DNA of 64,000 nt from Gemmatimonadales bacterium (GTDB lineage: Bacteria; Gemmatimonadota; Gemmatimonadetes; Gemmatimonadales; GWC2-71-9). Both the position numbers and the translations under genes were made by a program. Shown piece after piece: positions 20,301-37,255 of the stretch. How positions within the stretch are numbered: the first letter of the stretch is position 1; each line of letters starts with the position of its first letter. The notes below the pieces were generated by a model that saw nothing but the letters and a program-made list of their open reading frames with translations, had not been told where the DNA came from and did no database searches. The stretch covers positions 22,056 through 86,055 of the forward strand of contig DATDFC010000102.1 in NCBI GenBank assembly GCA_036522815.1, read 5' to 3'.

Positions 20301-20518
20301 TGGCGATGATCATCGGGATGGTCCCCATGGCGGTGGGGCTGGGCGAGGGCGGGGAGCAGAACGCGCCGCTCGGCCGCGCGGTGATCGGCGGGCTGGTGCT
20401 GGCGACCGCGGCCACGCTGTTCGTGGTCCCCGTCCTGTATTCCTTGATCCGGACCGAACCGCCGACCAGCCACCTGCTGGACGAGCGGTTCCTGGCAGAA
20501 GAGAGAGGGGAAGCGTGA
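17303..20518 (+). CDS. RND efflux transporter permease (AcrB/HAE family)
   Basis: 1071-aa, 12-TM architecture with an N-terminus typical of the family (MWIVRLALRRPYTIAVMALLILVLG) and full-length similarity. Confidence 0.9.
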   Translation: MWIVRLALRRPYTIAVMALLILVLGTLSLTRMIVDIFPAIDIPVVAVVWNYPGLSAEEMERRVVIISERGFSTTVNGIERIESQSIPGIGLLKIYFQPGTDIGGAIAQIGALSSTILRIAPPGMQPPTLVQFNASNVPVAQLTASSATLPEDRIFDYGLNFIRVRLFTIPGLSTPAPFGGRQRQVSIDIDPQALAAKGLSPADVVGALQVSNVIVPAGTARIGSTEYNVALNSSPSVVAEFERIPLKVVNGAPVLLGDVARVSDSYAPQSNIVRVNGKRATYLAILKHADASTLAVVEATRRAIPSIQAVAPEGLDLKIDFDQSLFVRAAISGVVREAILASVLVSLMIFAFLGSWRSVVIVSTSIPLAIFTAFLGLKFTNQTINIMTLGGLALAIGMLVDDATVAIENIHRNRALGKPLTVAVLDGARQVAVPAIVATLAICIVFFPVALLYGPARYLFTPLALAVVFAMLASYVLSRTLVPLLARLLMPGEEHAAATPSALQRQRDEIWERFQAGYGRALETVLAHRRFTLVTALVLAVSGVALLTVVGTDFFPAVDAGLMKLHFRAPAGTRIEETERLVEQVERRIRETIPAGELETVNDMIGVPLFYNLAFVPTDNIGAMDAEVLIALKPGHRPTERYMRALRATLPADFPGSSFYFQPADIVSQVLNFGVSAPVDVQIEGANLARSYEVARRLRDAIRTVPGAVDVHVPQVLDYPALKVQVDRVRAAQLGLTQRDVANSMLISLSSSGLIAPSFFLNPANNVNYTVAVQTPIARLASVPSLLATPLTPASGVRPADPSGAPSLAEPPEAPAVMLGNVASVSPGAAPGVVNHYTVQRVLDVEAGVEGRDLGGVVRDIRSRIAALGALPPGMRITVRGQGEVMAASFRSLGLGLILAIVLVYCLMVVLFQSWLDPFIIMAAVPGALVGILWMLALTGTTLNVESLMGSIMAVGIAVSNSILLVSFANDRRVETGGDALAAALEAGKTRLRPVLMTALAMIIGMVPMAVGLGEGGEQNAPLGRAVIGGLVLATAATLFVVPVLYSLIRTEPPTSHLLDERFLAEERGEA

Positions 20519-21636
20519 AGACCGAATTGCCGCAGTCGCGATCGGGGCGCCGCCTGCTCGTGGGGGGCGTGGTGTCGATGGTGGCCTCGGTCGCCATCGT
20601 CGCCGGGCTGCTCGCCCGCAAGGTGAGTCTGGTGCGCGCGGAGGGGCGGGCGCGCGCCGCCGCGGTGGCGGCGGGGCCGCACGTGCGCGTGGTGCGCGTG
20701 ACGGCGCCGCAGGGCGTCCAGACGCTGACGCTCTTGGGCGAGGCGCGGCCCTACGCGGCCGTCACGCTGTACGCCAAAGTCAGCGGCTACCTGCGCCAGA
20801 TCCTGGTCGACAAGGGCGACGCCGTGGGCGCGGGCCAGGTGCTCGCGGTGATCGAGTCGCCCGAGCTGGACCAGCAGTACGAGGCGGCGCTCGCCGACGC
20901 GCGCAACAAGCGCGTCAACGCCGACCGGTTCCGCGCCCTCGCGAAACAGAATGCCAGCTCGGCGCAGGAGGCCGAGCGCTATGAGACCGACGCAGCCGTG
21001 GCCGAAGCCAACCTCAAGGGCATCGAGACACTCAAGTCGTACGAGGTCATCCGGGCGCCGTTCACCGGACGCGTGACGGCGCGCTACGCCGACCCCGGCG
21101 CCCTGGTGCAGAACGCCACCAACGCGCAGACCGGTGCGCTCCCCGTCCTCACCGTGTCGGAGACGGGGCGGCTGCGCGTATACGCCTACGTGGACCAGCA
21201 GGATGCCCCCCTCGTCGGCGTCGGCACACCGGCGGAGATCACCGTGCCCGACCGGCCCGAGGGCCGGCTCACGTCGCGCGTGACGCGCGTCAGCGGGTTG
21301 CTCGACCCGCGCACGCGCACGCTGCTCGCCGAGGTGGACCTCGAGAACCAGGGCGGCGCCATTTTCCCCGGGAGCTACGTGACGGTGAAGCTCGCCGCCC
21401 GGGCGCGGGGCTACCCGGAGCTGCCGGCGGGCGCGCTGATCGTGCGCGGTGACACCACGCTCGTGGCTGTGGTGGACTCGGCTGGCCACGTCGCGTTTCG
21501 CCGCGTGGTCGTGGCGCGCGACGACGGCCAGAGCGCGCAGATCGCCGGCGGCGTGGTGCCGGGGGAGCGCGTCGCCCTGAACCTGGGGGAAAGCGTCGCC
21601 GAGGGCGCACGGGTCCAGCCGGTGGAGCAGCAGTGA
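20515..21636 (+). CDS. RND efflux periplasmic adaptor (membrane fusion protein)
   Basis: The GTG start overlaps the permease stop (GTGA). TM anchor, coiled-coil hairpin region and beta-barrel segments are typical of the HlyD/AcrA family. Confidence 0.85.
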   Translation: MKTELPQSRSGRRLLVGGVVSMVASVAIVAGLLARKVSLVRAEGRARAAAVAAGPHVRVVRVTAPQGVQTLTLLGEARPYAAVTLYAKVSGYLRQILVDKGDAVGAGQVLAVIESPELDQQYEAALADARNKRVNADRFRALAKQNASSAQEAERYETDAAVAEANLKGIETLKSYEVIRAPFTGRVTARYADPGALVQNATNAQTGALPVLTVSETGRLRVYAYVDQQDAPLVGVGTPAEITVPDRPEGRLTSRVTRVSGLLDPRTRTLLAEVDLENQGGAIFPGSYVTVKLAARARGYPELPAGALIVRGDTTLVAVVDSAGHVAFRRVVVARDDGQSAQIAGGVVPGERVALNLGESVAEGARVQPVEQQ

Positions 21637-22895
21637 TGCTGGGCGTCCTGGCGATCGTTTTCCCGCTCGCGCTCGACACGCTGCCAACTGTCTCGCTGGG
21701 CGAAGCGATCCAGCGCGCCGCCCGGCTCGATCCCGCGTACGTCGACGCGCTCGGCCAGGTGGAGAACGCCGCCTGGGCGCGGCGCGCGGCGCGCCTCGCC
21801 TTTATCGTGCCGTCGCTCGAGATCGGCGTCGACGCCACGAAATATTCGTCACCCTTCTTTAATCCCGGCACGGGCCAGCAGGGCACGAGCGCGGTGACGA
21901 CCCATGTCGCCGCGAGCTACGAGCTCCTGTCCGTGCGGAAGATCGCCGATCTCGCGGCGACCGACGCCGGGCACGAGGCCGCGGCGGCGGGGGAGCTGGC
22001 ACAACGCTTCCAGACGGCCATGGCGACGGAGGCCGACTATTACGATGTCCTGGCGAACCAGGAGCTGTTGCGGGTCGCCACGGAGCGGCTGAACCGGGCG
22101 CGGGAGCAGCTGGCGGTGGCGCGCGCCCGCGTCACTCAGGGCGTCGCCGTGCAGACGGACTCGCTGCAGGTGGCGCTGGAAGAGACGCGGGCGGAGATCG
22201 ATTCCGCGCGTCAGGCGGTGTCCCTCGCGGTGGCCCGGCTGCAGCTGGGCCGGCGCGTGGGCGCGGCCGGACCGGTGGCGGCACAGCCGCTCGATACGCT
22301 CCCGGCGCCCGCGCTGCCGATCTCGCTCGAGGAGGGCGTGGGCCTCGCGCTGCACGAGGGGCCCCGGTTCCGCATCGCGCGCGCCAACGAGCGCGTCGCG
22401 TCGGCCCTGCTCGCCGGCACCCGCGGGACGTACCTCCCCGAGCTGACGCTCTTCGGGGAGAACGAGCAGTTCGACACCCATTTCCTTCCCGAGGCGCGGA
22501 ACCTGTCGCTGGTGACGTTCCGCGTGAGCCTGCCGATCTGGACCGGGGGAGCGCGCGAGATCGCGATCAGCGAGGCGCGTGTGAACCGCGATGTCGCGCG
22601 CGCGGCTCGGGAGGACGTCGAGCGCGCCGCGCGACGCGATGTCACCGAGGCGTATGAGACCTACACCACGGCGCGCGACAACTACGCCCTGTCGATCCGG
22701 GCCCTCGCGACCGCCGCCGAGAATTTCCGGGTGCAGGACCAGCGCTATCGCGCCGGCGCGACGACCATCCTCGAGCTGGTGGATGCGCAGGTGCAGCTGA
22801 CCCAGGCGGGATCGGACGTCGTGCAGACGCGTTACGCCACGCGACTCGCGCTCGCCGGCCTGGAGGCGATCCTGGGACGGAGGCTGTTCGGCTAG
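21633..22895 (+). CDS. TolC-family outer-membrane efflux protein
   Basis: Overlaps the adaptor stop. Two OEP-type helical repeats are present (ELLRVATERLNRAREQLAVARARV...; ILELVDAQVQLTQAGSDVVQTRY). Confidence 0.85.
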   Translation: MMLGVLAIVFPLALDTLPTVSLGEAIQRAARLDPAYVDALGQVENAAWARRAARLAFIVPSLEIGVDATKYSSPFFNPGTGQQGTSAVTTHVAASYELLSVRKIADLAATDAGHEAAAAGELAQRFQTAMATEADYYDVLANQELLRVATERLNRAREQLAVARARVTQGVAVQTDSLQVALEETRAEIDSARQAVSLAVARLQLGRRVGAAGPVAAQPLDTLPAPALPISLEEGVGLALHEGPRFRIARANERVASALLAGTRGTYLPELTLFGENEQFDTHFLPEARNLSLVTFRVSLPIWTGGAREIAISEARVNRDVARAAREDVERAARRDVTEAYETYTTARDNYALSIRALATAAENFRVQDQRYRAGATTILELVDAQVQLTQAGSDVVQTRYATRLALAGLEAILGRRLFG

Positions 22896-25573: not shown

Positions 25574-27259
25574 TCAGCGCCGCGGTCGGTGCTGCTCGAT
25601 GTGGCGGGCCATAATGCGCATCAGCTCCGCGTTGGTCCACGGCTGCCAGCCGTGCGGCTTGAGCGGGCGCCCGTACGCGACCTCGGCGGCGGCGGCGGGG
25701 TGCGCGCGCTTGAGGAACTCCTCGAGGCGATAGACGGCGAGATTCAGGTAGAACGTGTCCATGTCCCCCACGAAGACATGGAGCTGCCCCTTGAGCTTGG
25801 GGCCGAGTGTGGCCCAGTTCCGCTCCAGATAATCGCGCAGGTCGTAATCGTGGGCCTTGAAGTACTCGGCTACCGCATGGTCGATCTTGCCCGTCGCGAG
25901 GTTCCACAACTCCGCGGGATAGCCGTCGGGGCCGACCGGACCGTACGTCGCCTCCCAGATGGCGAACTGCTCGCCCGAGCGCGCGCGGCTGCCCAGCACC
26001 GCCTCGAACTGGCTCTCCTGGCGCACGCTGATGCGCGGCTGCCCCGTGACCTCCTGCTCGGCCGGCACGTCGTAGCTCATCCATCCGGCCACGGGATGCA
26101 CGAACGCGCTCGTGTCGCTGTAGATGTCGGGGATCTCGTAATTCCGGAAGTCGACCGGGTCCGGATACAGCACCCACGTTCCCCCGAAAAAGTCCGGATG
26201 ATACAGCTGCAGGGCGAGCGCCTCCCAGCCACCAGTGGAGCCACCGGTGAGCAAGCGCGCCCAAGGCGCCCGGATCATGCGGAAGTGGTCTTCCAGATAG
26301 GGAATGAGCTCCCGCAGGATCGCGTCGCCGTAGGGTCCGTTGTTCGCGGAGTTCACGGCGTAGGAGTCGTCGAAGTAGGGCGTCGGATGCTGGAACGTGA
26401 CGGCGATCAGGCGCGGGAACTGCGCTGAGCTCCACGCCTGGTAGAACTCGTACCCGGGCTCGCGCGCCGTGCGCGCCAGCCGGGCCGTCCGCTGCTCCGG
26501 CGTCTCGACGCTCGAATCGGTCGAGAATCCGAACGGCGGTCGGAGATTGAAATGTCCCTGCTCGTACACCGTGGCGTAGCGGCGCGCCGTGTCGGTCTCG
26601 TAGCCGCGCGGCAGTAGCACCGTGGCGCCCAGGTACATGGGACGCCCCCACCAGGCCGTGAGCATCTCGCTCCGGATCTTGATGTGCTTCACCCATTTCG
26701 TGTCCGGCGGCAGCTCGATCGGTGGCAGCGCGCGGGTGAGCTCGAGCCGCACCGTATCCGGCGCGGCCGGATCGAGGTGCACCTTGCGCACCTCGCTCAC
26801 CAGGTTGCCGGGAGACTTGTTGAACTGCTGCCCCTCCCACTGGTCGTCATGCAGCCAGAGGGTGTGCCCGTCGGCGCGGTGGAACTCCGAGTAGACGTTG
26901 AGCAGCCCCTGCACGTAATAGTCGCCGGCGGGAATCTCCTTGAGGCTCGCGACCGGATAGCCGAGCGTGGCGGCGTCGATCACGCCCGCGGTACCGGCCG
27001 GGAGCGCCGTCACGTCGACGCCGAAGAAGGGCGTGCAATCGCTTTCGTGCCGGACCTGGAGGCGGGGTTCGGCGTCGTCGCCGCGGCTCACGAAGACGTA
27101 CATGCGGCCCGTGACCGGTGTGGCCCGGAGCGCCGCGGAGACCCGGATCTCGATGCGCTGTGCGGCTGATGGGGACGCGAAGGCGACGGTGACGAGAGAC
27201 GCGAGCGTAGCGAGCCGCAACGGACCAGTCCTGGAAGGGGCGCGGTACAGTGACCTCAT
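25574..27259 (-). CDS. exported esterase (esterase-D / enterochelin-esterase-like alpha/beta hydrolase)
   Basis: Signal peptide. The C-terminal half has a nucleophile elbow LLTGGSTGGWEAL within an esterase-like context. Confidence 0.7.
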   Translation of the reverse strand: MRSLYRAPSRTGPLRLATLASLVTVAFASPSAAQRIEIRVSAALRATPVTGRMYVFVSRGDDAEPRLQVRHESDCTPFFGVDVTALPAGTAGVIDAATLGYPVASLKEIPAGDYYVQGLLNVYSEFHRADGHTLWLHDDQWEGQQFNKSPGNLVSEVRKVHLDPAAPDTVRLELTRALPPIELPPDTKWVKHIKIRSEMLTAWWGRPMYLGATVLLPRGYETDTARRYATVYEQGHFNLRPPFGFSTDSSVETPEQRTARLARTAREPGYEFYQAWSSAQFPRLIAVTFQHPTPYFDDSYAVNSANNGPYGDAILRELIPYLEDHFRMIRAPWARLLTGGSTGGWEALALQLYHPDFFGGTWVLYPDPVDFRNYEIPDIYSDTSAFVHPVAGWMSYDVPAEQEVTGQPRISVRQESQFEAVLGSRARSGEQFAIWEATYGPVGPDGYPAELWNLATGKIDHAVAEYFKAHDYDLRDYLERNWATLGPKLKGQLHVFVGDMDTFYLNLAVYRLEEFLKRAHPAAAAEVAYGRPLKPHGWQPWTNAELMRIMARHIEQHRPRR

Positions 27260-27295
27260 ACGCGCCGGTTGGCAAGGAGCGGGGGGACGCCGTCT

Positions 27296-27327
27296 CCAAA
27301 AGAAAGAGGGCGGCCTCTGCCGCCCTC
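27296..27327 (-). terminator. rho-independent terminator after the ABM-like gene
   Basis: 9-bp stem GAGGGCGGC (27306-27314) / GCCGCCCTC (27319-27327) with loop CTCT. On the minus strand it is followed by TTTCTTTT (27298-27305). Confidence 0.65.
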
Positions 27328-27371
27328 CTCCTCCGAAACAGACCGGTCCGCTTACCGCGGATCAGTCGACT

Positions 27372-27686
27372 CTAGCTGCGAGCGGCGATCTTGTGGAACG
27401 TGGAGTTGGACACGTCGAAGCTGGCCACCTCGGGCGTTCCCTCGACCACCTTCGCCAGACCCTTCAGCACTTCGGGATACGTCTCGCGCGCATAGGCTTC
27501 CGCGCTCTCTTTGCGGTCCCACAGACTGATGGCAAGTGCTTCCTTGCCGTCCTGGGCAACGAACGTGATCTCGTCCGCGAACCCTGTGCGCTTCCGAAGC
27601 AGGGGCAGGATGTCCTTCTCGAGCGTCTGCGTGAACTCACCCACCGTATTGGGCTTCAGGTGCATCGTGACATTGCGTGCGTACAT
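27372..27686 (-). CDS. ABM/Dabb-like small ferredoxin-fold protein
   Basis: ATG at 27686 (MYARNVTMHLKPNTVGEF...ISLWDRKESAEAY), about 104 aa. This pattern is typical of antibiotic-biosynthesis-monooxygenase-like domains. Confidence 0.6.
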   Translation of the reverse strand: MYARNVTMHLKPNTVGEFTQTLEKDILPLLRKRTGFADEITFVAQDGKEALAISLWDRKESAEAYARETYPEVLKGLAKVVEGTPEVASFDVSNSTFHKIAARS

Positions 27687-27833
27687 GTGGCGACTCCTTG
27701 GCAACCAACATGAACCTCTGCGACAACGGGCACTGCGTGAGCTTGCCCAACGTACCGTACTTTACTAGATTTGTCAAGTAGGGACCTGCATGAGCAGTAC
27801 TGTTTTACCAACCATTGTTAATGAGGGAGAGGG

Positions 27834-28715
27834 GTGCCAGTGGACGTGCCTTTTGTGATTCGTCAGCGGCTGGAGGAACTGGGGTTGGAGCAGCGCGATC
27901 TCGCCCGCGCCGCCCGCGTGACCGAGTCCTACATCTCGCAGCTGCTCACACGGCGCAAGTCGCCCCCCGCCCCGAACCGCACCGACATTTACGACCGGAT
28001 GGACAAGTTCCTGCGATTGCCCACCGGGGAGCTGGCCCGGCTGGCGGAGCTGCAACGCAAGCAGCAGCTCAAGCGCGAGCTGGGCGACGAGCCCGCGGCC
28101 CTGCTGGGCGAAGTTCGCGAGCTGATCTTGCGAAAGTGTAACCCCGACAAGGAACGCCAGATTCGCGCGATCTTCGAGCAGCAACCCCTGGGTGAGCTGG
28201 AGCGACTGATCACGGCGAAAGTCTTGGAAGTGGCGAAGCAGCTGGCCCGGCTGGAATTGGACAACGAATACTGGATCCGCATGATGGCGCAGCTCGGCGG
28301 CCGCAGTTACGAAGAGATGCGTGTGATCGTGCTCGAGTTCCTCGATAGCGACATCTTCCACGTGTCGGCCGAGAACTGCGTGTCGTTCCTGGGCCCGCTG
28401 ATCGAGTCGTGGGACATCGACCTCGCCACGTTCGCACTGCAAATCGTCCTGAACCGACAGATAGCGGCCGGCCATGTGAAGCGCTTCGAGTTCATCGAAC
28501 GGGAATTCGACGAGCCCGCGAGCGAGGAGCCGGGGCTCACGGCGTTCCTGCACGACCCCGCCCTGAGCGGCACGGCGACGGTGGAGGAGCTGGCGTTTCT
28601 CAAGCGGCTGCGGTTCACCCACAAGCGGCCGACGCCGCTGTTTTACTACCGCGAGCTCCAGAGCCTGCGGGATCCTCTGCACTTTCGGACCCCGCCGTCC
28701 GGCGAACCTCGCTAG
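27834..28715 (+). CDS. XRE-family HTH protein with ~220-aa uncharacterised C-terminal domain
   Basis: N-terminal HTH (IRQRLEELGLEQRDLARAARVTESYISQLLTRRK). GTG start preceded by GGGAGAGGGG. The C-terminal domain matches nothing I recognise. Confidence 0.7.
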   Translation: MPVDVPFVIRQRLEELGLEQRDLARAARVTESYISQLLTRRKSPPAPNRTDIYDRMDKFLRLPTGELARLAELQRKQQLKRELGDEPAALLGEVRELILRKCNPDKERQIRAIFEQQPLGELERLITAKVLEVAKQLARLELDNEYWIRMMAQLGGRSYEEMRVIVLEFLDSDIFHVSAENCVSFLGPLIESWDIDLATFALQIVLNRQIAAGHVKRFEFIEREFDEPASEEPGLTAFLHDPALSGTATVEELAFLKRLRFTHKRPTPLFYYRELQSLRDPLHFRTPPSGEPR

Positions 28716-29323
28716 GGCCGTCCCAGGACGGCCCGCGCGATCCGCAGCACGATCGGCGCGACCTGCGCGGGCGTCCGCGTCGGCCCGGCGAGCAGGTCGA
28801 ACGTCTCGAATCCCGTGAGTGCGAACAGGGCGTCGATGGTCTCCTCCGGCGAGGCCGCCGCGGGCCCAGCGGCGCGCTCCCGCAAGCGACCCACGATCAC
28901 CCGCAGTCCCTGACGCCGCCATTCCTGCCGGGCCCGCAAGGTTCGCTCGAGCCCTGGGTCCAGCGCCGCCAGCGCCAGCAGGCGCCGGTGAATCGGCCGG
29001 TGCGCCGTCCAGAAGCGGGCGAAGGTCGCCACGAACCGCCCCAGCGCCTCATGCGGATCGGGCTGGCGGAAGGCATCCGCCAGCTCCCACATCCCGCCCT
29101 GGCGGGCGAGATCGTCGAACAGCGCCTCGAGCAGCTTGGACCGCGAGCCGAAGCGCTGATACACGGTCACCCGGGTGACGCGTGCCCGCCGGGCGACCGC
29201 CTCGATGCTGAACGCGCCGGCGCCGCGGGCGACGAGCAGCGCGCGCGCGGCCTTGAGGATGCGGGCCCGGGTGCGGTCGACCGCCTTCTGGCGGCGGCCC
29301 AGCCGGTAGGGCCGCCGGGTCAC
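28712..29323 (-). CDS. TetR-family transcriptional regulator
   Basis: TetR HTH (RILKAARALLVARGAGAFSIEAVARRARVTRVTVYQRFGSRSKLL). GTG at 29323 is chosen as the start (alternative TTG at 29350). The rest of ORF 28712-30142 is rejected. Confidence 0.8.
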   Translation of the reverse strand: MTRRPYRLGRRQKAVDRTRARILKAARALLVARGAGAFSIEAVARRARVTRVTVYQRFGSRSKLLEALFDDLARQGGMWELADAFRQPDPHEALGRFVATFARFWTAHRPIHRRLLALAALDPGLERTLRARQEWRRQGLRVIVGRLRERAAGPAAASPEETIDALFALTGFETFDLLAGPTRTPAQVAPIVLRIARAVLGRP

Positions 29324-29355
29324 GGGACGGGGTGCCTTGATAGGAAACAATTTAG

Positions 29356-29372
29356 CTATACATATCGTATAG
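29356..29372. promoter_or_regulatory. candidate TetR operator palindrome
   Basis: CTATAC-ATATC-GTATAG, with perfect 6-bp arms, lies in an unusually AT-rich 76-bp divergent spacer between the TetR gene and the 29400 gene. Confidence 0.5.
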
Positions 29373-29399
29373 TCAATTATACTCCACCGGAGGTGTCCC

Positions 29400-29897
29400 G
29401 TGGTCTGGCTGCGCTTGGTGCATATCGTCGCAGGCGTCGTCTGGGTCGGCTCGGCCGTGTTCGCCGCCCTGTTCGTCCTTCCCACCGCCCGGGCCTTGGG
29501 CCCCGAGGGCAGCCGCTTCGTGGCGCGCCTGATGCCGCGCTCGGGCCCCGTGCTCGGCAGCGCCATGCTGTTGACGATCGTCTCGGGATTCATCATGTAC
29601 GGGCGGCTCTCCGCCGGATTCAACCGGGGCTGGGTGACGTCGCGCGTGGGGCTCGCGCTCGGCGCCGGGGCGGTCGCCGCCCTCCTCGCGGTGATCGTGG
29701 GTGTGGCCGTGAACGCCCCCGCCGGCGCCAAGATGGCCAGGCTCCGCAAGGGCCTCGAACCGCAGGGCGGCACCCCGACCGCGGCGCAGGCCGCAGAGCT
29801 CGCCACCCTGCAGGCACGCGTGGAGCGGGGAGCCCAGCTCGTGGCCCTGCTGCTCCTGACGGCGGCCGGGGCGATGGCGGTCGCCCGGTACCTGTGA
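29400..29897 (+). CDS. membrane protein (four TM helices), unknown function
   Basis: GTG at 29400 preceded by GGAGGTG. Hydrophobic 165-aa ORF divergent from the TetR gene. Confidence 0.65.
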   Translation: MVWLRLVHIVAGVVWVGSAVFAALFVLPTARALGPEGSRFVARLMPRSGPVLGSAMLLTIVSGFIMYGRLSAGFNRGWVTSRVGLALGAGAVAALLAVIVGVAVNAPAGAKMARLRKGLEPQGGTPTAAQAAELATLQARVERGAQLVALLLLTAAGAMAVARYL

Positions 29898-30194
29898 GCG
29901 CTCTCGCCGGGAAGGTGGTGCTCGTCACCGGCAGCTCGCGGGGCATTGGTGCCGCGATCGCGACACTGTTCGCGCAGCACGGCGCCAGGGTGGCGCTGCA
30001 CGGCCGGGATGAGGAGGCGCTCTCGGCCGTGCGGGCCGCCATCGGGCGCGGCGCGGCCGCGAGATGTCGCGCGCGCGGCCGTATTCCTCGCGTCGGACGA
30101 GGCGGGGTGTCCCCGTGATGGGCCCCATGGGATTCGAATCAACGATCATAGCCTGGCGACCGGATTTGTCGTCGGGCTGCGCTCCCCCCGCTAA
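29894..30194 (+). pseudogene. short-chain dehydrogenase/reductase remnant (internal deletion plus frameshift)
   Basis: The GTG at 29894 (GTGA-coupled to the previous gene) opens a normal SDR N-terminus (LAGKVVLVTGSSRGIGAAIATLFAQHGARVALHGRDEEAL). Near 30050-30062 the sequence jumps to a typical SDR C-terminus in another frame (DVARAAVFLASDEAG). The central ~170 aa, including the catalytic YxxxK region, is missing. Confidence 0.6.
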
Positions 30195-30213
30195 CGCCTT
30201 TCTCCCCTGCCGG

Positions 30214-30295
30214 TTGAGTCCGGACACTGCCACGTTGCCCGGCTATTGCTCGCGTCTCCGTAGCTTGGGTCGCGTGACATGTGCGACACCAACGC
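30214..30295 (+). promoter_or_regulatory. conserved upstream element, copy A (phased TTGnnnn heptamers plus TAGCTT)
   Basis: 53/62 identity (hand count) to 31039-31100. TTGAGTC at 30214, TTGCCCG at 30235, TTGCTCG at 30246, an 8-bp spacer, then TAGCTT at 30261-30266. It begins 123 nt upstream of the ATG at 30337. Confidence 0.45.
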
Positions 30296-30336
30296 AAGCC
30301 ATGGCAGGTGAAGGAAACAGGGAGAAAGGCGGAGCA

Positions 30337-31035
30337 ATGACCTCGACCATCACAGCGGCTCTCCTGGGTCTGATGTCCGGGTCCGCTGAAAGCGCATTGC
30401 CCCGCCTCGAGCTCGCGCCGGCTGCTCGTGCGGTCCTCGCCGCGTTCGCGGCCAGCCCCACGGAGCGCCTCGCCTGCCTGCTCGGCTCCGTTGACGGCCC
30501 GACGGTTCGGGTCAAGTCCGTGTCGGAGACTGACGACAGCGGCGCGACGGCCACGCGCGTGGTCGCCCGCGCCCCATGCCCGCCTGGAGCGGTGGGGCGA
30601 GTCCACTCCCACCCGGGCGCCGAGCGGTGCTGGTACTGGTTCCCGGGCACCCAAGTCGAGACCTCGGACGCCGTCTCGTTCCGCCGCGGCGGCTACCCAG
30701 TCGACGCCATCGTGTGCGGTCCGACGCTGGTCTATGTCACCCGCGCCGGCGGCGCCGAGGCCCAGAGCCTCGCGTTAGTGGGCCGCAACGTGCCGGTCCT
30801 GCTGGTGGCTGCCGCGGTCGCGTTCGCGACCGCCCAAGACTCCACCATGCGCAGGCCGTGCGGAGGCCAAATCGTGGCGTCGGACGAGCGCGAGCCCGAC
30901 GGGAGCTTCCTCGTGCGCTGGGCGCGCGCGATTCGCTCGGCTGCTCTGAAACCGCGGATCTCCCAGTCCGCGCGACTCACGTTGCAGTATCGGCGTCCGC
31001 TGGGCGCGCAGCTCGGGATTACGCTCCACCTCTAG
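30337..31035 (+). CDS. hypothetical membrane-anchored protein with a JAB/MPN-like E...HSHP...D pattern
   Basis: ATG at 30337 preceded by GGAGAAAGGCGGAG; GC-rich third positions. It has a signal-like N-terminus, the segments TERLACLLGSVDG and GRVHSHPG...ETSD, a TM helix (VPVLLVAAAVAFATA) and an Arg-rich tail. The JAB assignment is tentative. Confidence 0.55.
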   Translation: MTSTITAALLGLMSGSAESALPRLELAPAARAVLAAFAASPTERLACLLGSVDGPTVRVKSVSETDDSGATATRVVARAPCPPGAVGRVHSHPGAERCWYWFPGTQVETSDAVSFRRGGYPVDAIVCGPTLVYVTRAGGAEAQSLALVGRNVPVLLVAAAVAFATAQDSTMRRPCGGQIVASDEREPDGSFLVRWARAIRSAALKPRISQSARLTLQYRRPLGAQLGITLHL

Positions 31036-31038
31036 CCA

Positions 31039-31122
31039 TTGACTCCGGACATCTCCGCGTTGCCCGGCCATTGCTCGTGTCTCCCTACCTTGGGTCGCGT
31101 TCACATGAACGCCACACCGACG
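31039..31122 (+). promoter_or_regulatory. conserved upstream element, copy B (phased TTGnnnn heptamers plus TACCTT)
   Basis: TTGACTC at 31039, TTGCCCG at 31060, TTGCTCG at 31071, an 8-bp spacer, then TACCTT at 31086-31091. It begins 137 nt upstream of the ATG at 31176. Confidence 0.45.
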
Positions 31123-31175
31123 GGTTGCAGGAGTGGCGGTGCTAGACCGGAAGCGACCCACACCAGGAGGCATAT

Positions 31176-31748
31176 ATGCTTGGATTGATCGCAACACTCA
31201 CTCGGGGTCGCGTGCTTCGCGCCCTGGCGACCGCAGGCATCATCGGCGCTGCAGCGTGTCAGGATGCCAGCAGAGCCGTCGGGCCCACCAAAGACGTCGG
31301 GGAGGCCAACGCCCTTTTCTTGGCCGCACCCCAACCCGACCTGATCGTGAAGAGTTTTACCTACGCACCAATCGATCCGAATTATCCCGGCTACGCGTGG
31401 TCGACGGACGTCGAGCTTACAGCAGTCGTCAGCAATGTCGGCCTCGCGACGGCGGGCGCCTCGATCCTCAGTTTCAGCGGCTGGGCTCCCGCGACGTTGC
31501 AGCCGCTCTCTCCGGTGCTGTCGCCATCCTCACCCTGGCTCGCCTGCACCATGCCGCTGCGGGACGGGCAGTTTTGGGTGCCGGCGCTTGCCCCGGGTCA
31601 GGACTACATCGTGCACTGGACTGTCCATCTCCAAGACGGGTCTTACTACCAGATCACGGCGACCGCCAATTCGCCCCAGTGCACCTCAGAATGGGACCTG
31701 TCGAACAACTCGGCGCTCGTCCACTTCCAGGTAATCATCATCAATTGA
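31176..31748 (+). CDS. CARDB-domain lipoprotein
   Basis: AGGAGG lies 6 nt upstream of the ATG. Lipobox IIGAAAC. CARDB-like pattern PDLIVKSF...VVSNVG...ending in EWDLSNNSA. GC is visibly lower than in neighbouring genes. Confidence 0.7.
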   Translation: MLGLIATLTRGRVLRALATAGIIGAAACQDASRAVGPTKDVGEANALFLAAPQPDLIVKSFTYAPIDPNYPGYAWSTDVELTAVVSNVGLATAGASILSFSGWAPATLQPLSPVLSPSSPWLACTMPLRDGQFWVPALAPGQDYIVHWTVHLQDGSYYQITATANSPQCTSEWDLSNNSALVHFQVIIIN

Positions 31749-31788
31749 CGGCCCCCGTGAGGCACCGGTGCCGTTCCGTAGCTGTGAG

Positions 31789-31826
31789 GCAGCGCCGCGC
31801 TCCCGCGCGGCGCTGCACTGCGTTTT
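31789..31826 (+). terminator. terminator hairpin between convergent genes
   Basis: Perfect 12-bp stem GCAGCGCCGCGC (31789-31800) / GCGCGGCGCTGC (31805-31816) with loop TCCC, followed by ACTGCGTTTTCT. Confidence 0.6.
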
Positions 31827-33962
31827 CTAGGCGGGCAGTCGTGCCCGCAGCTCGGCGAGGGCGCGACGGCCCTGCTCGTCACCCGGCTCGAGCACCCGCT
31901 CGGCCGCGGCGAGCGCCCGGCGCGCAGCGCGCGGAGCGGATTCGGCGAGCGCCGCGTGCACCGCTGCCACTGCCTCGGCGAACGCGGCCGCGGGCGGTCC
32001 CGTCCGGGCCAGGAGCTCCGCTCGCAACAGGCGCGATTCCAGGTCGGGGCGCGACGCCAGCGCTGCCGCAGCGCGGGCCCGCAGTGCGCGTCGCTCGCCG
32101 GCCAGGAGGCGCTCCCCGCTCACGACTTCGGCGATGAGCGGCGCGGCGAAGCGATAGCGCTCCCCGTCGAAGGTGAGCAACCCGTGGCGCTCCAGGACGG
32201 CGAGCAACTGCTCGATGCGCTCGGGTGCGACGCCGGTGAGCGCGGCGATGAGCTCCGGGTCCACGGCGAGCGCGCCGATGCTCGCCGCGCGCAGCACCTG
32301 CAGGGTCGCCGCGTCCAGCTCCGCGACCCGGGCCAAGACTGCCTGGCGCGCCAGGCTCGGGACCGACATCGGGAGCGGTTCCTCGATGGTGACGCCCGGA
32401 CGGGGCCAGGTGAGCGCCTCCGCGCGCAGGATCGCGGTCTTCTCGAGCCCTTGCAACATGGTGACGATCAGAAACGGGTTCCCGCTCGTCTCGAAGAAGA
32501 CACGACGAGCCAGGCGATCGAGATCCGCCTGGTTCACGCACCAGGCGCTGCCGTGCAGTACGAGCTCCCGCGTCTCGGCCGCGGAGAGGGGCTCGAGCTG
32601 CACCGTCTGGCCCGGCACTCTTCCCGCGCGTCCGACGTCGCTCCGCAGGCGAACCAGCGCGCGCGAGGGCTCCTGGAATGTCGCGCGCGCGCTCAGCACC
32701 AGCAGCACCGGCAGCCCGGCGAGCTGCGGCATGGCGCCACCGAGCGCCTCGATGCTGGCGCCGTCCGCGCAATGCGCCTCGTCCACCGCCAGCGCCACGG
32801 GTTGCTCCTCAGCGAGCGCCCGCAGCAGCGACGCCAGGGCCGCCGCCACCTCGGCGTGGTCGGCGGGTGCGCGCGATGCGACGCCTGGGAACGCTTCGGG
32901 CGCCAGGGTCGCGAGCGCGGCGAGCGCGTAGGGGTCGGCGGCGGCGCTGCCTGGCGCGCGCATCAGGCCCGCGCGCAACAGAGTCCGGAGCGTGCTCCAG
33001 GGGGCGTCGCGGTCGCTCTCGAGCGGCGTGGCGACCGCCGCCACCGCGCCCTGGAGCGCGAAGCGGTCCACGCACTCGGTCAGAAGCCGGGTCTTTCCCG
33101 TCCCCGGGTCACCGGTGATCAAAACGGTCTGCGGGCCCCGTTGTAACGTCTCCGCGACCAGCGTGAACGCCTCCCGATGCGCCCGTGCCTGGCCCACCAG
33201 CGGCGGCCTCGTTTCCCCGGGCGGCCGCGTGTGCCGCCGCCAGCGCTGCCCCCGGATGCGGTCGGCGAGCGCCGCCAGCTCGCGGCCCGGTTGCTCGCCC
33301 AGGGCCGCCAAGCGGGTGGCGAACTCGTGAAACGCCGCGAGCGCCCCGGCGGCGTCCCCGCTCAGCGCGCAGGCGCGCATCAATAGCTGCACGGCTGGCT
33401 CTCCATACGGCTGCAGGGCGAGTGCGCGACGGGCCGACGCGCTCGCGTCGGACTCGCGCGCTGTGGCCAGTGCCTCCTCACCGGCCGCGACCAGCGCGGC
33501 GGCCGCCCGCGCGCGATACCGGTCCCGCTCCTGTGCTGCCCACTCCTCGAACGCGGGCGCGCCCTCGAGGGCGAAGCCCTCGAGAAAATCGCCCTCCACG
33601 AGACGGGCGGCATCGGCAGGGCTGCGGTCCAGCAGCGCGTCGAACCGCAGCGCATCCACCTCGAGTGCGTCCTCGCGCAGCAGGATCGAGTCGCTATCGG
33701 ACGCGAGGCGCGCCTCACCGACGTGCGCCCGCAGCCGCCGGATCGCCTCGTTGAGCGAGTGGCGCGCCCGGGCGTCGTCGGTCTCCGGCCAGAGCACTCC
33801 CACCAGATGCGCCCGGGTCCGTCTGCGCTTAGGAGAAAGGGCGAGGTAGACGAGCAACGCGAGATGCTTGCGACGCAACACCTCGGGCGGCGCCGGGCCG
33901 CCGGCGAGGCGCGCGGTCGGCACCCCGAAGCAATGAAGCTCCAGGGGAGGCAGTCCGGACAT
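31827..33962 (-). CDS. AfsR-like SARP-family regulator (wHTH + BTAD + P-loop NTPase + helical repeats)
   Basis: N-terminal OmpR-type winged helix (LELHCFGVP...RRKHLALLVYLAL), a BTAD region (DALRFDALL...QPYGEPAVQLLMRACALSGDAAGAL), Walker A GDPGTGKT, and a long Ala/Leu-rich C-terminal part. Confidence 0.85.
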   Translation of the reverse strand: MSGLPPLELHCFGVPTARLAGGPAPPEVLRRKHLALLVYLALSPKRRRTRAHLVGVLWPETDDARARHSLNEAIRRLRAHVGEARLASDSDSILLREDALEVDALRFDALLDRSPADAARLVEGDFLEGFALEGAPAFEEWAAQERDRYRARAAAALVAAGEEALATARESDASASARRALALQPYGEPAVQLLMRACALSGDAAGALAAFHEFATRLAALGEQPGRELAALADRIRGQRWRRHTRPPGETRPPLVGQARAHREAFTLVAETLQRGPQTVLITGDPGTGKTRLLTECVDRFALQGAVAAVATPLESDRDAPWSTLRTLLRAGLMRAPGSAAADPYALAALATLAPEAFPGVASRAPADHAEVAAALASLLRALAEEQPVALAVDEAHCADGASIEALGGAMPQLAGLPVLLVLSARATFQEPSRALVRLRSDVGRAGRVPGQTVQLEPLSAAETRELVLHGSAWCVNQADLDRLARRVFFETSGNPFLIVTMLQGLEKTAILRAEALTWPRPGVTIEEPLPMSVPSLARQAVLARVAELDAATLQVLRAASIGALAVDPELIAALTGVAPERIEQLLAVLERHGLLTFDGERYRFAAPLIAEVVSGERLLAGERRALRARAAAALASRPDLESRLLRAELLARTGPPAAAFAEAVAAVHAALAESAPRAARRALAAAERVLEPGDEQGRRALAELRARLPA

Positions 33963-33983
33963 TTGGGAAGAAACTAACGCCTA

Positions 33984-34044
33984 GGCGTCTGGGCGCCTCG
34001 CTACAGCCACCATACCTCTAGACGCCCAGACGCCCGGACGCGCA
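33984..34044. promoter_or_regulatory. inverted repeat and tandem octamers in the divergent promoter region
   Basis: GGCGTCTGGGCG (33984-33995) and its exact reverse complement CGCCCAGACGCC (34023-34034). Three tandem octamers GACGCCCA GACGCCCG GACGCGCA lie at 34021-34044. Confidence 0.35.
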
Positions 34045-34170
34045 GGAACCCAATCTAACGGATCACCTCTCGCGCCCGAAGCGCTCGGCCCGCCCTTTGA
34101 ACCCGGGTCTGCTCGCAAGCATCCTACACGCAGGCCACGCTGTGTCGTGAAACCCCCGTCAGGAGGGACA

Positions 34171-34584
34171 ATGAAACGCGAGCGACTCCTCATCGCCCTG
34201 AGCGCCGTCAATGTAGCCGTGCTGGCGTTCTCCCTGGCCCAGGCGCCGCGCGCCGGGGCCCAGGACGTGGCACCGGTGCTGCGGGGCCGTTCGCTGGAAA
34301 TCGTGGACGCACACGGCCACGTCCGCGCCAGCATCACCATCTACCCGGCCGATCCCACGGTCAAAATGCCCGATGGCACCACCGGGTACCCGGAGACCGT
34401 GCTGCTTCGGCTGATCAGCTCGACGGGCCGCCCGAATATCAAGATTGCCGCCAGCGAAGATGGATCGGGCATGGTGCTCGGCGGCGAATCGGATCCGGCC
34501 TACATTCAGCTGCTCGCGAGAGGCACCAATACGTCCGTGAAGATGATCAACAAAGACGGGCGGGAGCAGGTGATCAAGCCGTAA
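34171..34584 (+). CDS. small exported protein, unknown function
   Basis: ATG at 34171 preceded by AGGAGGGA. Signal peptide MKRERLLIALSAVNVAVLAFSLAQA. 137 aa, with lower GC than the surroundings. Confidence 0.6.
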   Translation: MKRERLLIALSAVNVAVLAFSLAQAPRAGAQDVAPVLRGRSLEIVDAHGHVRASITIYPADPTVKMPDGTTGYPETVLLRLISSTGRPNIKIAASEDGSGMVLGGESDPAYIQLLARGTNTSVKMINKDGREQVIKP

Positions 34585-34847
34585 CGATCAGGGGTCCGCC
34601 CACCGCGGGAGACCGCCCCGGGGTCGCCTGCTCGGCGTAGCAGCGCCGGAACGGCGTGGAGCGGTCATGGGGTGAGGCTTGCGGGTCCCGCCCGGCCGCC
34701 CACCCGGTTACCTTGGGGGTCGGCCCGGCGGGGGAGCGCGATCGGCGCAGCTCCCATTGCTGGCGCGACCCGTTGTCGCGGATATGTTCAGACACCAGCT
34801 CAGGAGCCGCACCATGGCGACGTCTCGCTCGGGGGAACCCGCCCGGC

Positions 34848-35651
34848 GTGGCTGACCTGCGAACGGCGCTGCAGGACGCGCTGGGCCCGACCTACCGGGT
34901 CGAGCGCGAGGTGCGTCCGGTAGGCACCTGCCGCATGTTCGTCGCGCTCGAAGGAGCGAGCGGACCGGCTCTCCTCGTGAAAGTCCTGCCGGGGGAGCTG
35001 TCGCTCGCGTTGGACACGGCGCTGCTCGAGCGCGAGCTCCAGATGCTGGCGGAGCGTCTGAGCGCGCCGCCCCTCGTGCCTCCGCGCGGCTCCGGACGCG
35101 CCGGCGCGTTGGTATATCACTCGCGCGCGTTCGTGGAAGGCACCACGCTGCGCGCCTGGCTCACCCGCAACGGCGAGCTGCCGCTGCGCCGGGCGGTCGA
35201 GATTCTGCGCGACGTGCTCAGCGCGCTGGCCCACGCGCACGCCGCCCACATCGCCCACGGCGACCTGAAGCCCGAAAACGTCCTCCTCACCGAAGGCCAC
35301 ACGCTGGTCGCCGATACCGGGATCGTGGGAGCGGTGGAGCGTTCTCTGCCGCGCGGCGCGCCCGGGGCGGTGACCGGGGCGCTGTGCGCCACCACCTATG
35401 TGGCGCCGGAGCGGCGCGCGCCCGGAGGGAAGAACGGCGCGGCGGCGGCCACGCCGGCCGACGACATGTTCGCCGTGGGCGTGCTGGTGCACGAGATGTT
35501 GACGGGTCGCCCGCCCACGCCGGAATCGGAGCCACTCGAGGAGGTCCGCTCGGTGCCCCCGTGGCTCGCCGAGCTGGAGCGGCGCTGCCTCGCGCCCGAC
35601 CCGGCGAGCCGCTGGCCGGATGGCGGCGCGGCGCTCGCCGCAATGAGCTGA
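34848..35651 (+). CDS. stand-alone Ser/Thr protein-kinase-like protein (non-RD, degenerate Gly loop)
   Basis: Catalytic loop HGDLKPENVLL, DTG in place of DFG, YVAPER, and DMFAVGVLVHEMLTGRPP. The Gly-rich loop is replaced by VRPVGTCRMF. The GTG at 34848 is chosen as the start because the family N-terminus usually begins there; the ORF is open from 34656. Confidence 0.6.
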   Translation: MADLRTALQDALGPTYRVEREVRPVGTCRMFVALEGASGPALLVKVLPGELSLALDTALLERELQMLAERLSAPPLVPPRGSGRAGALVYHSRAFVEGTTLRAWLTRNGELPLRRAVEILRDVLSALAHAHAAHIAHGDLKPENVLLTEGHTLVADTGIVGAVERSLPRGAPGAVTGALCATTYVAPERRAPGGKNGAAAATPADDMFAVGVLVHEMLTGRPPTPESEPLEEVRSVPPWLAELERRCLAPDPASRWPDGGAALAAMS

Positions 35652-35661
35652 CTGCTCCTCC

Positions 35662-36465
35662 TCACCCGCTCGCGCCCGAGTAGCGCTTGAGCGCGGTGCG
35701 CCACAAGAGCCGGGTCAGCGCGAACACGACTCCCGCCACCACCGCCGCGACCAGCGCGAACCCGGGCTCGAGTCGTCCCGTGAGAGCGGACGCAGGGATC
35801 GTCGTGGTCCAGGCGATGGGGATGAGGTACACGAAGACGAATCGCAGCGCGCCCGGATAGGCCGACACCGGATAGCGGGCGCCCTCATACACCGCGTCGA
35901 ACAGCACCGAGAGGTTCTCCACCGACACGAACCAGAAGGCCAGGCTCATCAGCGCCACCCACAGCGCGTATACCACGACAACGGCAGCCGCAAGCGTCAA
36001 GCCGAACGCCGCAAGCTGCGCGACCGACGGCATCCGGCCGAGCCGGTACAGCGCGTAGCCCGCCAGGACGAGGCCGAGCACGACATCGGAGAATCGCCAC
36101 ACGTCGAGGCGGCGGAACGAGACGAACCCCTGCGCGTCTACTGGCTTCGCGAGCACCAGATCGAGGCCGCCGCTCTTCACTTCTCCCGCGAGCCGACCGA
36201 TGCCTGGCCGCAGCACGGCTTCGATCACTCCGGTGAGCGTGTTGAACACTCCCAGCAGGACGACGACCTCCCAATAGTCCCAGTCCCCCAGCCGCGTTGT
36301 GTGCCGGAAGAACACCGCCAGCGTGAGCAGCGCCGTGACGATCCAGAACAGCGTGCCGAGCAGACTGGCCACAAGGTTGGCGCGATACTGCACCTCTTCG
36401 GCGACGTTGAGGCGGAACAGGGCGATCAGAACGCGGAACGCGGAAGTCGGAACGCGTAACATCAT
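35662..36465 (-). CDS. ABC-2-type transporter permease
   Basis: Six-TM protein (MMLRVPTSAFRVLIALFRLNVAEEVQYRANL...). The start overlaps the stop of the upstream permease gene. Confidence 0.8.
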   Translation of the reverse strand: MMLRVPTSAFRVLIALFRLNVAEEVQYRANLVASLLGTLFWIVTALLTLAVFFRHTTRLGDWDYWEVVVLLGVFNTLTGVIEAVLRPGIGRLAGEVKSGGLDLVLAKPVDAQGFVSFRRLDVWRFSDVVLGLVLAGYALYRLGRMPSVAQLAAFGLTLAAAVVVVYALWVALMSLAFWFVSVENLSVLFDAVYEGARYPVSAYPGALRFVFVYLIPIAWTTTIPASALTGRLEPGFALVAAVVAGVVFALTRLLWRTALKRYSGASG

Positions 36466-37255
36466 CCGCCCACCGCACCGTACTTGCGCAGCCCCCGGGT
36501 CCACGCCAGGCGGTAGGCACCCAGCCACACCGCGAGCCACAGGATCTGCCCCACGAAGCCCTGCACGACCGCGGCGCCGTGCACGGCACCGGTGAGCAGG
36601 TCCACCGGGAATGCCAGCATGTAGGGGAACCATAAGAACCCCGCCACCCGCGCTACGGTGGGCGGGAGCAGGGCGAGCGGCGCGAGCCGGCCGGAGAGAA
36701 ACAGCGAGATCCCGGCGTGCAGCTCCATGATGGCGGTGGCGCGGGTGGTCCAGAACGCGAGCAGCCCCGTGGCGAAGCTGATGAAGAACCGCATCGCCGC
36801 AGCGAGCAGCACCGCTATAGCGGTGAGGGCCCACCGCCCCGTTTCGAACGGCAGCCGCACCGCGGGCCACGCCGCCGCGACGATCAGCCACACCACGAGG
36901 ATCATGCCGGCGGTCCGCGCCTTGTAGGCCATGTTCTCCGCCACCGCCTCGTGCGCCGGGTGAATCGGGCGGGCCAGGCGGAAGTTCAGCTCGCCCTCAC
37001 GGATCCACGAATCCAAGTACCACGAGTCCCAGGCGATGGTGAGCTGGTTGACGAGCATCAGGGCGAAGAAATAGCGCGCGAAGTCGGCGCGGGCATACCC
37101 CTGCACGGGGCCGTCCGCCGCGATCGCCCACCAGATGCCGAGCGCGACGGCCGGCTCGGTCACGCCCCAGAGCAGCCACAGGACGATGGATGCCCGGTAC
37201 TGCAGGTCCTGCAGCCAGGCGGCGCGCAGCAGCGCGCCGTAGCGCCGCGGCCAGC

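Follow-up and report, generated by a model that had tools for sequence, protein, structure and literature searches.

A 64,000-nt stretch of a Gemmatimonadales genome (contig DATDFC010000102.1, positions 22,056 to 86,055, hereafter the window) contains a conserved cassette core, spanning 30188 to about 34012, in which the gene for a 711-aa SARP-AAA regulator is convergent with genes for a JAB/MPN-fold protein and a CARDB-type lipoprotein (JAB and CARDB below). This core is probably a self-contained, mobile cassette of soil Gemmatimonadales that combines a SARP-type activator with its own local regulon of lipoprotein and exported-protein genes, a reading that draws on comparison of the sequence with its relatives. 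The closest relatives of the window are metagenome-assembled genomes (MAGs) of soil Gemmatimonadales, and DNA homology with them covers exactly window positions 30188-34000.

The cassette genes are marked by a direct repeat of 62 nt, one copy preceding JAB and the other CARDB, with 85% identity between the copies and with the JAB stop codon 3 nt ahead of the second. Each copy carries three heptamers (R1, R2 and R3; Table 1), and in each an 8-bp gap separates R3 from a -10-like hexamer (TAGCTT at 30261-30266 before JAB, TACCTT at 31086-31091 before CARDB). The core of the element can be written as TTGACTC-N14-TTGCYCG-N4-TTGCTCG-N8-TA(G/C)CTT, which places R1 and R2 21 bp apart and R2 and R3 11 bp apart. 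This pattern has two matches in the window against 0.05 expected, and the R2-R3/-10 pattern two against 0.02. At SARP promoters, direct repeats 11 or 22 bp apart overlap the -35 region, and the 3' repeat lies 8 bp from the -10 (PMC10936776; PMC5930380). As putative SARP promoters, the JAB and CARDB elements follow this published rule in everything except the 21-bp distance between R1 and R2, and no canonical sigma-70 promoter was found before either gene.

Conservation of the element follows that of the cassette. A profile of the regulator led to 80 genome loci (numbered with the prefix L), whose neighbourhoods were compared with the window. The only neighbours common to the window and its closest relatives are CARDB and JAB; the exported-protein and kinase genes that also lie near the regulator in the window are not among them. 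In its full form, the cassette of relatives runs from a tRNA-His gene through the regulator, one or two convergent CARDB domains, JAB and a beta-propeller lipoprotein (PD40) to a tRNA-Trp gene, while a minimal form consists of the regulator and PD40 only. PD40 is the third gene with the same promoter in relatives, and the element precedes JAB, CARDB and PD40 in L001, L002, L003 and L006. The exact pattern had no match in the first 80 loci, and short-word BLAST together with a degenerate pattern was needed to find the copies. A metagenome scan with the degenerate element added 22 further stretches, bringing the copies from the scan, the genome loci and the window to 38, 26 of them unique. Whenever the contig extends far enough to include the gene downstream of a copy, that gene is JAB, CARDB or PD40, and a SARP orthologue with 72-91% identity adjoins these targets wherever the contig is long enough. 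The element is thus associated exclusively with these genes and, in the more general form described below, with SARP paralogues. A separate arrangement occurs on one metagenome contig (L100, 253-664 and 3054-5195), where two cassettes stand in tandem: a truncated regulator beside JAB and a CARDB gene 96% identical to that of the window, followed by a full-length regulator paralogue (76%) with PD40.

The regulator begins with an OmpR/PhoB-type winged helix-turn-helix (wHTH; Pfam Trans_reg_C, E=3e-5) and a BTAD domain (E=5.6e-12, 46.7 bits against a cut-off of 22.1), which are followed by a P-loop module that matches AAA_16 (E=9e-15) and AAA_22 and contains a Walker A motif, GDPGTGKT, and a Walker B-like motif, LAVDEAH. 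By these motifs the protein appears to fit the STAND NTPase scheme, with the SARP domain as the effector. Neither NB-ARC nor TPR gave a Pfam match in the regulator, whose C-terminal 290 aa were searched even at E<=1, and an alignment to the AAA-TPR part of TIGR03903 (NCBIfam) scores far below the cut-off. Among solved structures, the family profile matches EmbR at 9e-11 (residues 9-248) and AfsR at 9e-4; a single-sequence search of the same structures returned no match for the regulator. More than 850 homologues have a similar length, mostly about 700-720 aa, and the close homologues all come from Gemmatimonadota MAGs.

The two target candidates in the window are an atypical JAB protein and a fast-evolving lipoprotein. 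JAB matches Pfam Prok-JAB at E=0.0024, below the cut-off, and its family, which is Gemmatimonadales-specific, conserves a PTE motif (Glu), HSHP, a 15-residue insert ERCWYxFPGTQV and TSD, together an atypical JAMM motif, as well as four Cys. The core of the AlphaFold2 model (residues 21-90) has predicted local distance difference test (pLDDT) values of 76-90 and matches Rpn11, CSN5 and JAMM1 in Foldseek with E-values from 6e-5; TM-scores reach no more than about 0.3-0.5, as half of the model is of low confidence. A single-sequence search of solved structures gave chance matches only. The conserved residues, including the four Cys, suggest an exported protein, and JAB is probably exported and metalloprotease-like. 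CARDB matches its Pfam family at E=4.5e-4 (20.8 bits against a cut-off of 22.7), and its L001 orthologue has two domains, the first a CARDB domain at E=7e-17 and the second a DUF11/CARDB-like domain homologous to the window protein. CARDB is 66% identical to this orthologue, compared with 90% for the SARP. A preliminary description of the window, made from its letters alone, had named a 711-aa wHTH-BTAD-P-loop protein (GDPGTGKT), an HSHP protein and a CARDB lipoprotein here; all three stand, with the wHTH, JAB and CARDB scores below their Pfam cut-offs, and the three genes proved to be a conserved unit in related genomes.

Table 1. Features of the inserted segment, the cassette and its borders in the window.
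Feature	Position	Strand	Description
5' part of decayed SDR gene	29894..30109	+	N-terminal Rossmann piece, frameshift, then '...PRDVARAAVFLASDEAG'; left edge of insertion
Inserted segment, 4546 bp	30110..34655		Interrupts SDR gene
JAB promoter element	30214..30275	+	R1 TTGAGTC 30214-30220, R2 TTGCCCG 30235-30241, R3 TTGCTCG 30246-30252
JAB/MPN-fold protein, 232 aa	30337..31035	+	Hydrophobic segment, C-terminal extension; probably exported
CARDB promoter element	31039..31100	+	R1 TTGACTC 31039-31045, R2 TTGCCCG 31060-31066, R3 TTGCTCG 31071-31077
CARDB-type lipoprotein, 190 aa	31176..31748	+	Lipobox IIGAAAC
G+C-rich 12-bp hairpin with T-run	31789..31816		Between convergent CARDB and SARP genes; likely terminator
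SARP-AAA regulator, 711 aa	31827..33962	-	wHTH ~29-84, BTAD 114-237, AAA_16 256-421, ~290-aa C-terminal region with no Pfam match
Inverted repeat AGGCGTCTGGGCG / CGCCCAGACGCC	33983..34034		GGCGTCT units; surrounds tRNA remnant
Probable tRNA-His 5'-end remnant TGGTGGCTGTAGC	34000..34012	-	Right end of cassette homology; from alignment
Membrane-anchored exported protein, 137 aa	34171..34584	+	N-terminal transmembrane helix and beta-meander domain
Last SDR codons and stop (...GGAVMG*)	34656..34675	+	Right edge of insertion
Hanks-type stand-alone kinase, 267 aa	34848..35651	+	Flank gene, outside cassette; Pfam Pkinase E=6e-22

Such a cassette could operate as follows. By analogy with AfsR and other STAND regulators, the ATPase and the C-terminal part would form a switch that depends on nucleotide and on a sensed signal. 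Once switched on, the SARP domains would bind the three direct heptamers TTGACTC, TTGCYCG and TTGCTCG, which would stand in for the missing -35, the last of them ending 8 bp before the TA(G/C)CTT -10. Bound in this way, the regulator would bring RNA polymerase to JAB and CARDB, two genes that otherwise have no promoter. Further targets would be the PD40 lipoprotein in relatives and a metzincin-like lipoprotein in a sister group of paralogues.

The arrangement of boxes extends to more distant regulators. A generic three-box scan required TGACTC (<=1 mismatch) 21 bp upstream of two heptamers that lie 11 bp apart and have <=2 differences, followed by 8 bp and TAnnnT. It gave 57 matches in 1.42 Mb compared with 0-2 in ten shuffles. 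Outside the cassette clade there are 14 matches at 13 loci (L005, L007, L008, L010, L011, L021, L025, L029, L044, L049, L052, L062 and L074), where the regulators are 36-56% identical to that of the window. All 14 boxes lie no more than about 1.7 kb from the regulator gene and are mostly convergent with it, and their heptamers vary by paralogue (TTGTCTG, GTGACCG, TTGACTG, TTGAGAT). A lipobox or signal peptide stands at the start of 15 of the 16 downstream open reading frames (ORFs) checked, many of which encode tiny lipoproteins (61-83 aa) whose lipoboxes read LAAC or TGC. In the sister group, at 78-79% identity, the box TTGACTC..TTGCCCG..TTGACCG..TAACGT (L085:3165(-), L094:3992(+), L097:3120(-)) points away from the regulator start and toward a 350-aa lipoprotein with a metzincin-like HELGHGFSLHH motif.

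Several points weigh against control of these genes by the SARP. Firstly, the spacing of R1 and R2 is 21 bp where the SARP rule gives 22, and the wHTH scores 24.4 bits, just under its Pfam gathering score of 26.2. Secondly, the pattern used to find the metagenome copies was derived from the element, these copies all belong to one clade, and the ORF and lipobox calls in relatives are heuristic. Thirdly, the recognition helix RHSLNEAxRRLR is nearly invariant among paralogues though their heptamers differ. A 151-nt metatranscriptome contig from public RNA runs is identical to the window over 31210-31360; it shows only that CARDB sequence is present in an RNA library. Finally, an 11-nt block, TTGGGTCGCGT, lies just downstream of the -10-like hexamer (30252-30275 and 31077-31100) and is invariant in all copies; the SARP model leaves it unexplained, and another factor could bind there.

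This last point leads to a different account of the 62-nt repeat, in which it is the operator or promoter of another factor, such as an alternative sigma factor or a repressor on the 11-nt block, or else a leader RNA, and the SARP regulates something else. The invariance of TTGGNTCGCGT downstream of the -10 would fit such an account, as would the retention of R1 (TGACTC) across paralogues with differing R2 and R3, which could reflect a shared factor. The motif nevertheless always lies by a SARP gene, even for the paralogues of 36-56% identity, and its geometry fits the SARP rule (PMC10936776), so that we consider another factor unlikely. An RNA element was rejected, as RNAalifold returned -7.5 kcal/mol with a covariation term of -0.17, indicating no conserved RNA structure, and there was no Rfam match above noise in 27-39 kb.

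The cassette lies within a larger piece of inserted DNA. The gene for a short-chain dehydrogenase/reductase (SDR) that the preliminary description called decayed does consist of pieces: its 5' part matches Pfam adh_short positions 1-46 at E=1.7e-9, and beyond a frameshift lies a C-terminal piece that weakly matches adh_short_C2 positions 201-222. In a contig from run X2, 30056-30109 is joined through 29 nt to 34656 onward, which completes the SDR reading frame and yields a textbook SDR C-terminus, ...RLATPRDVARAAVFLASDEAGWITGVVLDVAGGAVMG*; the segment between these points thus interrupts the SDR gene. The JAB-CARDB-SARP cassette in it is preceded by 78 nt of unknown origin and followed by a tRNA-His remnant, the gene for the exported protein and 47 nt. 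The cassette and this unrelated gene for a small membrane protein would have been inserted into the SDR gene together. Independent contigs from run X1 (about 100-140x, 0 mismatches) tile 27500-36500 over every junction, which shows that the arrangement is no assembly chimera. Run X2 has this SDR piece to the right of the gene for the exported protein and lacks 34000-34088 (89 nt); because this arrangement differs from that of the window, the insertion junctions appear to vary within the population (a single X2 contig, 13x).

Two relatives lack the insertion altogether. Window positions 28753-34702 are missing from L103, in which the HTH_31 gene is followed by 39 bp and then by the upstream region of the kinase, and positions 29987-34845 are missing from L104, where the order is TetR, DUF2269, kinase and ABC-2 operon. 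In both, the left flank continues to the kinase with no such block in between; the block is strain-variable inserted DNA, in keeping with the accessory character first proposed for it. Its limits change from 30195-35651 to those in Table 1, which leave the kinase outside. The insertion site is a variable spot between the TetR/DUF2269 pair and the conserved kinase-ABC-2 block. More widely, comparison of window 27154-29986 with L103 and L104 shows a mosaic hotspot between an esterase-like gene and the kinase. Only the 110-aa and HTH_31 genes occur there in L103 and only TetR and DUF2269 in L104; the window has both pairs as well as the insertion.

A link to tRNA-His is suggested at the right end of the cassette. 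The remnant there is an exact 11-nt match to an ARAGORN-called tRNA, or 13 nt with the two preceding bases; 11-mers also occur elsewhere by chance, and support for the remnant is moderate. In relatives, its position lies 62 nt ahead of the SARP gene and is taken by an intact tRNA-His gene, which was called in L001, L002, L003, L086, L096 and L098; the window itself contains no intact tRNA. Repeat units similar to those around the remnant (GGCGTCT/AGACGCC) follow the intact tRNA-His in L002. The remnant and the 62-nt direct repeat had both escaped the preliminary description, whose negative statement on tRNAs and direct repeats was wrong. A second tRNA remnant or a flanking direct repeat was sought at the left junction (30110-30187) and between the two junctions, and neither was found; no integrase-like gene is among the domains assigned in 27.3-35.7 kb, where no dedicated integrase search was made. 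The insertion resembles tRNA-linked genomic islands in that the cassette is strain-variable, keeps a tRNA-His remnant, interrupts a gene and has counterparts between tRNA-His and tRNA-Trp in relatives. It differs from them in having no integrase-like gene in the assigned domains, no flanking direct repeats found in the window and no compositional deviation.

Composition does not set the block apart. The window has a G+C content of 70%, and the block, which the preliminary description took for a lower-GC module, has 0.712 against 0.701 for the whole window, the 83rd percentile among sliding windows of equal size. G+C at third codon positions (GC3) is typical for JAB (0.857), SARP (0.875) and the kinase (0.891). 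Unusual codons had been reported for two genes: CARDB is indeed an outlier, the only one, with the lowest GC3 (0.762) among the window's credible genes, whereas the 137-aa exported protein merely falls at the low end of the range (0.831). With the G+C of the block and the GC3 of three of its five genes typical, composition was rejected as a sign of foreign origin. The lowest-GC stretch of the neighbourhood lies beyond the block, at 27200-28700 (0.61-0.63), where the 110-aa ORF and the 293-aa HTH_31 gene are found; with normal GC3 in this stretch, the dip stems from amino-acid composition. Farther upstream, an RND efflux operon (pump, membrane-fusion protein and outer-membrane factor) at 17303-22895 is collinear with L103 and L104.

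The kinase and exported-protein genes, which the preliminary description had joined to the regulator, are both real genes. Hundreds of homologues of the kinase have its length of about 267 aa (those of 64-94% identity range over 261-297 aa), which places its start at GTG 34848; an exact look-up of the 331-aa kinase ORF found no match because the true start lies further downstream. The family alignment conserves K45, HGDLKPEN, DTG and APE, and the Gly-rich loop is replaced by an invariant REVRPVGxCR. This family (homologues P0121-P0240) is conserved as a stand-alone kinase across Gemmatimonadales, also in unrelated contexts. The kinase adjoins the ABC-2 operon in L103 (with a kinase 90% identical) and in L104, both without the cassette, and is absent from all orthologous SARP cassettes, for which 3-10 kb of flank was covered. 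Kept where the cassette is missing, the kinase is a bystander that belongs to the conserved flank with the ABC-2 operon, and its adjacency to the regulator is an accidental by-product of the insertion.

The 137-aa exported protein lies in the inserted DNA outside the conserved cassette and adjoins the SARP also in run X2. No SARP box precedes its gene in either the pattern or the three-box scan. The protein belongs to a family of 793 representatives at 50% clustering and is modelled by AlphaFold2 with a pLDDT of 91; its best Foldseek hit, to OspA (E=0.046), is not significant, and it has no Pfam, PDB profile or PADLOC match. The structural comparison of the small proteins thus placed JAB and gave nothing significant for this one. 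The envelope proteins once proposed as targets divide into JAB and CARDB, likely targets whose genes carry SARP-type promoters, and the exported protein, which has no SARP box and so nothing that marks it as a target.

These results bear on the suggestion that the adjacent kinase phosphorylates the SARP-ATPase in the manner of AfsK and AfsR, the pair controlling three envelope proteins as an acquired lower-GC island. The window regulator is indeed AfsR/EmbR-like. Kinase-domain ORFs are moreover enriched beside its paralogues, with 15 of the 149 genes adjacent to 80 regulators compared with 4 of the 514 genes at least four positions away (Fisher p=2e-7, a test that counts orthologous loci, which are not independent), and a kinase occurs within three genes at 6 of the 13 box-positive paralogue loci. 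The paralogue-adjacent kinases are mostly large Ser/Thr kinases. In the window, by contrast, the kinase is a flank gene conserved in other contexts, none of the orthologous cassettes has it, the G+C content is not lower and the exported protein lacks a SARP box. We regard an AfsK/AfsR-like pair here as quite improbable, and the kinase as no member of the module. The theme of kinase, SARP and envelope genes may be real for the paralogues though accidental in the window. Whether the Gemmatimonadales carry an expanded, phylum-specific family of SARP-STAND proteins of about 710 aa, each wired by its three-heptamer box to one or a few adjacent lipoprotein genes, many for products of just 60-85 aa, and often with Ser/Thr kinase genes nearby as the likely input, seems to us evenly balanced.

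Two further alternatives take the regulator or its neighbours in other directions. The regulator could be a cluster-situated activator of a biosynthetic cluster, with the envelope genes as incidental neighbours, since in L001 (2927-9846), L002 (2909-9846) and L096 (1-4332) genes for a roughly 1960-aa non-ribosomal peptide synthetase (NRPS) and a thioesterase lie beyond tRNA-His, directly upstream of it and the SARP gene. The tRNA gene nevertheless separates the NRPS genes from the cassette, the NRPS flank of these three loci contains no three-box site, and no biosynthetic genes lie near the regulator in the window. There is also no NRPS match near the L003-type cassette (L086), and nothing NRPS-like was seen in L006 or L094-type relatives, which makes a biosynthetic role very improbable. 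Alternatively, the block could be a STAND-type anti-phage defence system with JAB and the kinase as effectors. STAND ATPases, JAB domains and kinases are all known in defence systems, and the kinase matches PADLOC kinase models (PD-T4-6, E=1e-32). Those matches, however, reflect the generic kinase fold of a core flank gene; the regulator reaches only E=0.006 in PADLOC, on its P-loop, and JAB, CARDB and the exported protein have no match. As the regulator also has a DNA-binding SARP domain and cognate promoters, a defence system is scarcely credible.

With the SARP-driven cassette as the preferred reading, comparison with known regulators defines what is distinctive about it. Like AfsR of Streptomyces coelicolor (SARP, NOD/NB-ARC and TPR; PDB 8HVR), the window regulator has an N-terminal OmpR-type wHTH and a BTAD domain followed by a P-loop, STAND-like ATPase, and in AfsR target promoters, too, the direct repeats overlap a -35 of poor quality and 8 bp separate the 3' repeat from the -10 (PMC10936776). 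AfsR, however, has about 990 aa, compared with 711 aa and no detected TPR or NB-ARC Pfam match here; it belongs to Actinobacteria rather than Gemmatimonadales, and acts on afsS or antibiotic pathways rather than on adjacent lipoprotein and exported-protein genes. AfsR also has AfsK, whereas no conserved AfsK-like partner was found for the orthologue group of the window regulator. The medium SARPs CdaR, CpkO and FdmR1 (about 600 aa, SARP and NB-ARC) share the size class and the two-module architecture (PMC10972967) as well as three heptameric repeats at their binding sites. The window regulator differs in about 290 additional C-terminal residues and in a putative regulon of lipoprotein genes, whereas medium SARPs serve Streptomyces as cluster-situated activators of clusters for polyketides or peptides.

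The best profile match among solved structures is EmbR of Mycobacterium tuberculosis (wHTH, BTAD and FHA, with the kinase PknH; PDB 2FEZ), a SARP-type regulator of envelope-related genes (embCAB operon) under Ser/Thr kinase control, but the window protein has a P-loop ATPase in place of FHA, and kinase linkage is seen only for its paralogues. In SARP-LAL regulators (PimR, FilR, SanG), too, a SARP domain is linked to an ATP-binding module, and their heptamers recur every 11 bp (PMC5930380). The sites of polyene SARP-LALs are found upstream of the -35, as in class I activation, whereas the boxes in the window overlap the -35 position as in classical SARPs, and the C-terminal halves differ from that of the window regulator.

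A 2024 review describes SARPs as 'exclusively found in actinobacteria' and as switches of antibiotic clusters (PMC10972967). The window regulator has neither an actinobacterial host nor biosynthetic genes beside it in the window, traits of the family that are descriptive rather than mechanistic, and the literature searched contained no papers linking SARPs to Gemmatimonadota. The full SARP promoter grammar upstream of genes for lipoproteins and exported proteins, as seen in this other phylum, provides a concrete set of regulator, operator and targets outside the actinobacterial and antibiotic framework, from which an accidental kinase-regulator pairing has been removed. It offers a first way into the gene regulation and envelope biology of the Gemmatimonadota, which are abundant in soil and hardly studied genetically. 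For genome mining, it implies that a SARP outside Actinobacteria should not count as a marker of a biosynthetic cluster. If the broader SARP-STAND family is confirmed, SARPs would be no antibiotic-specific invention of actinobacteria and would instead represent a general device for local regulons, one that in Gemmatimonadales would remodel the cell envelope and of which the window would hold one mobile copy.

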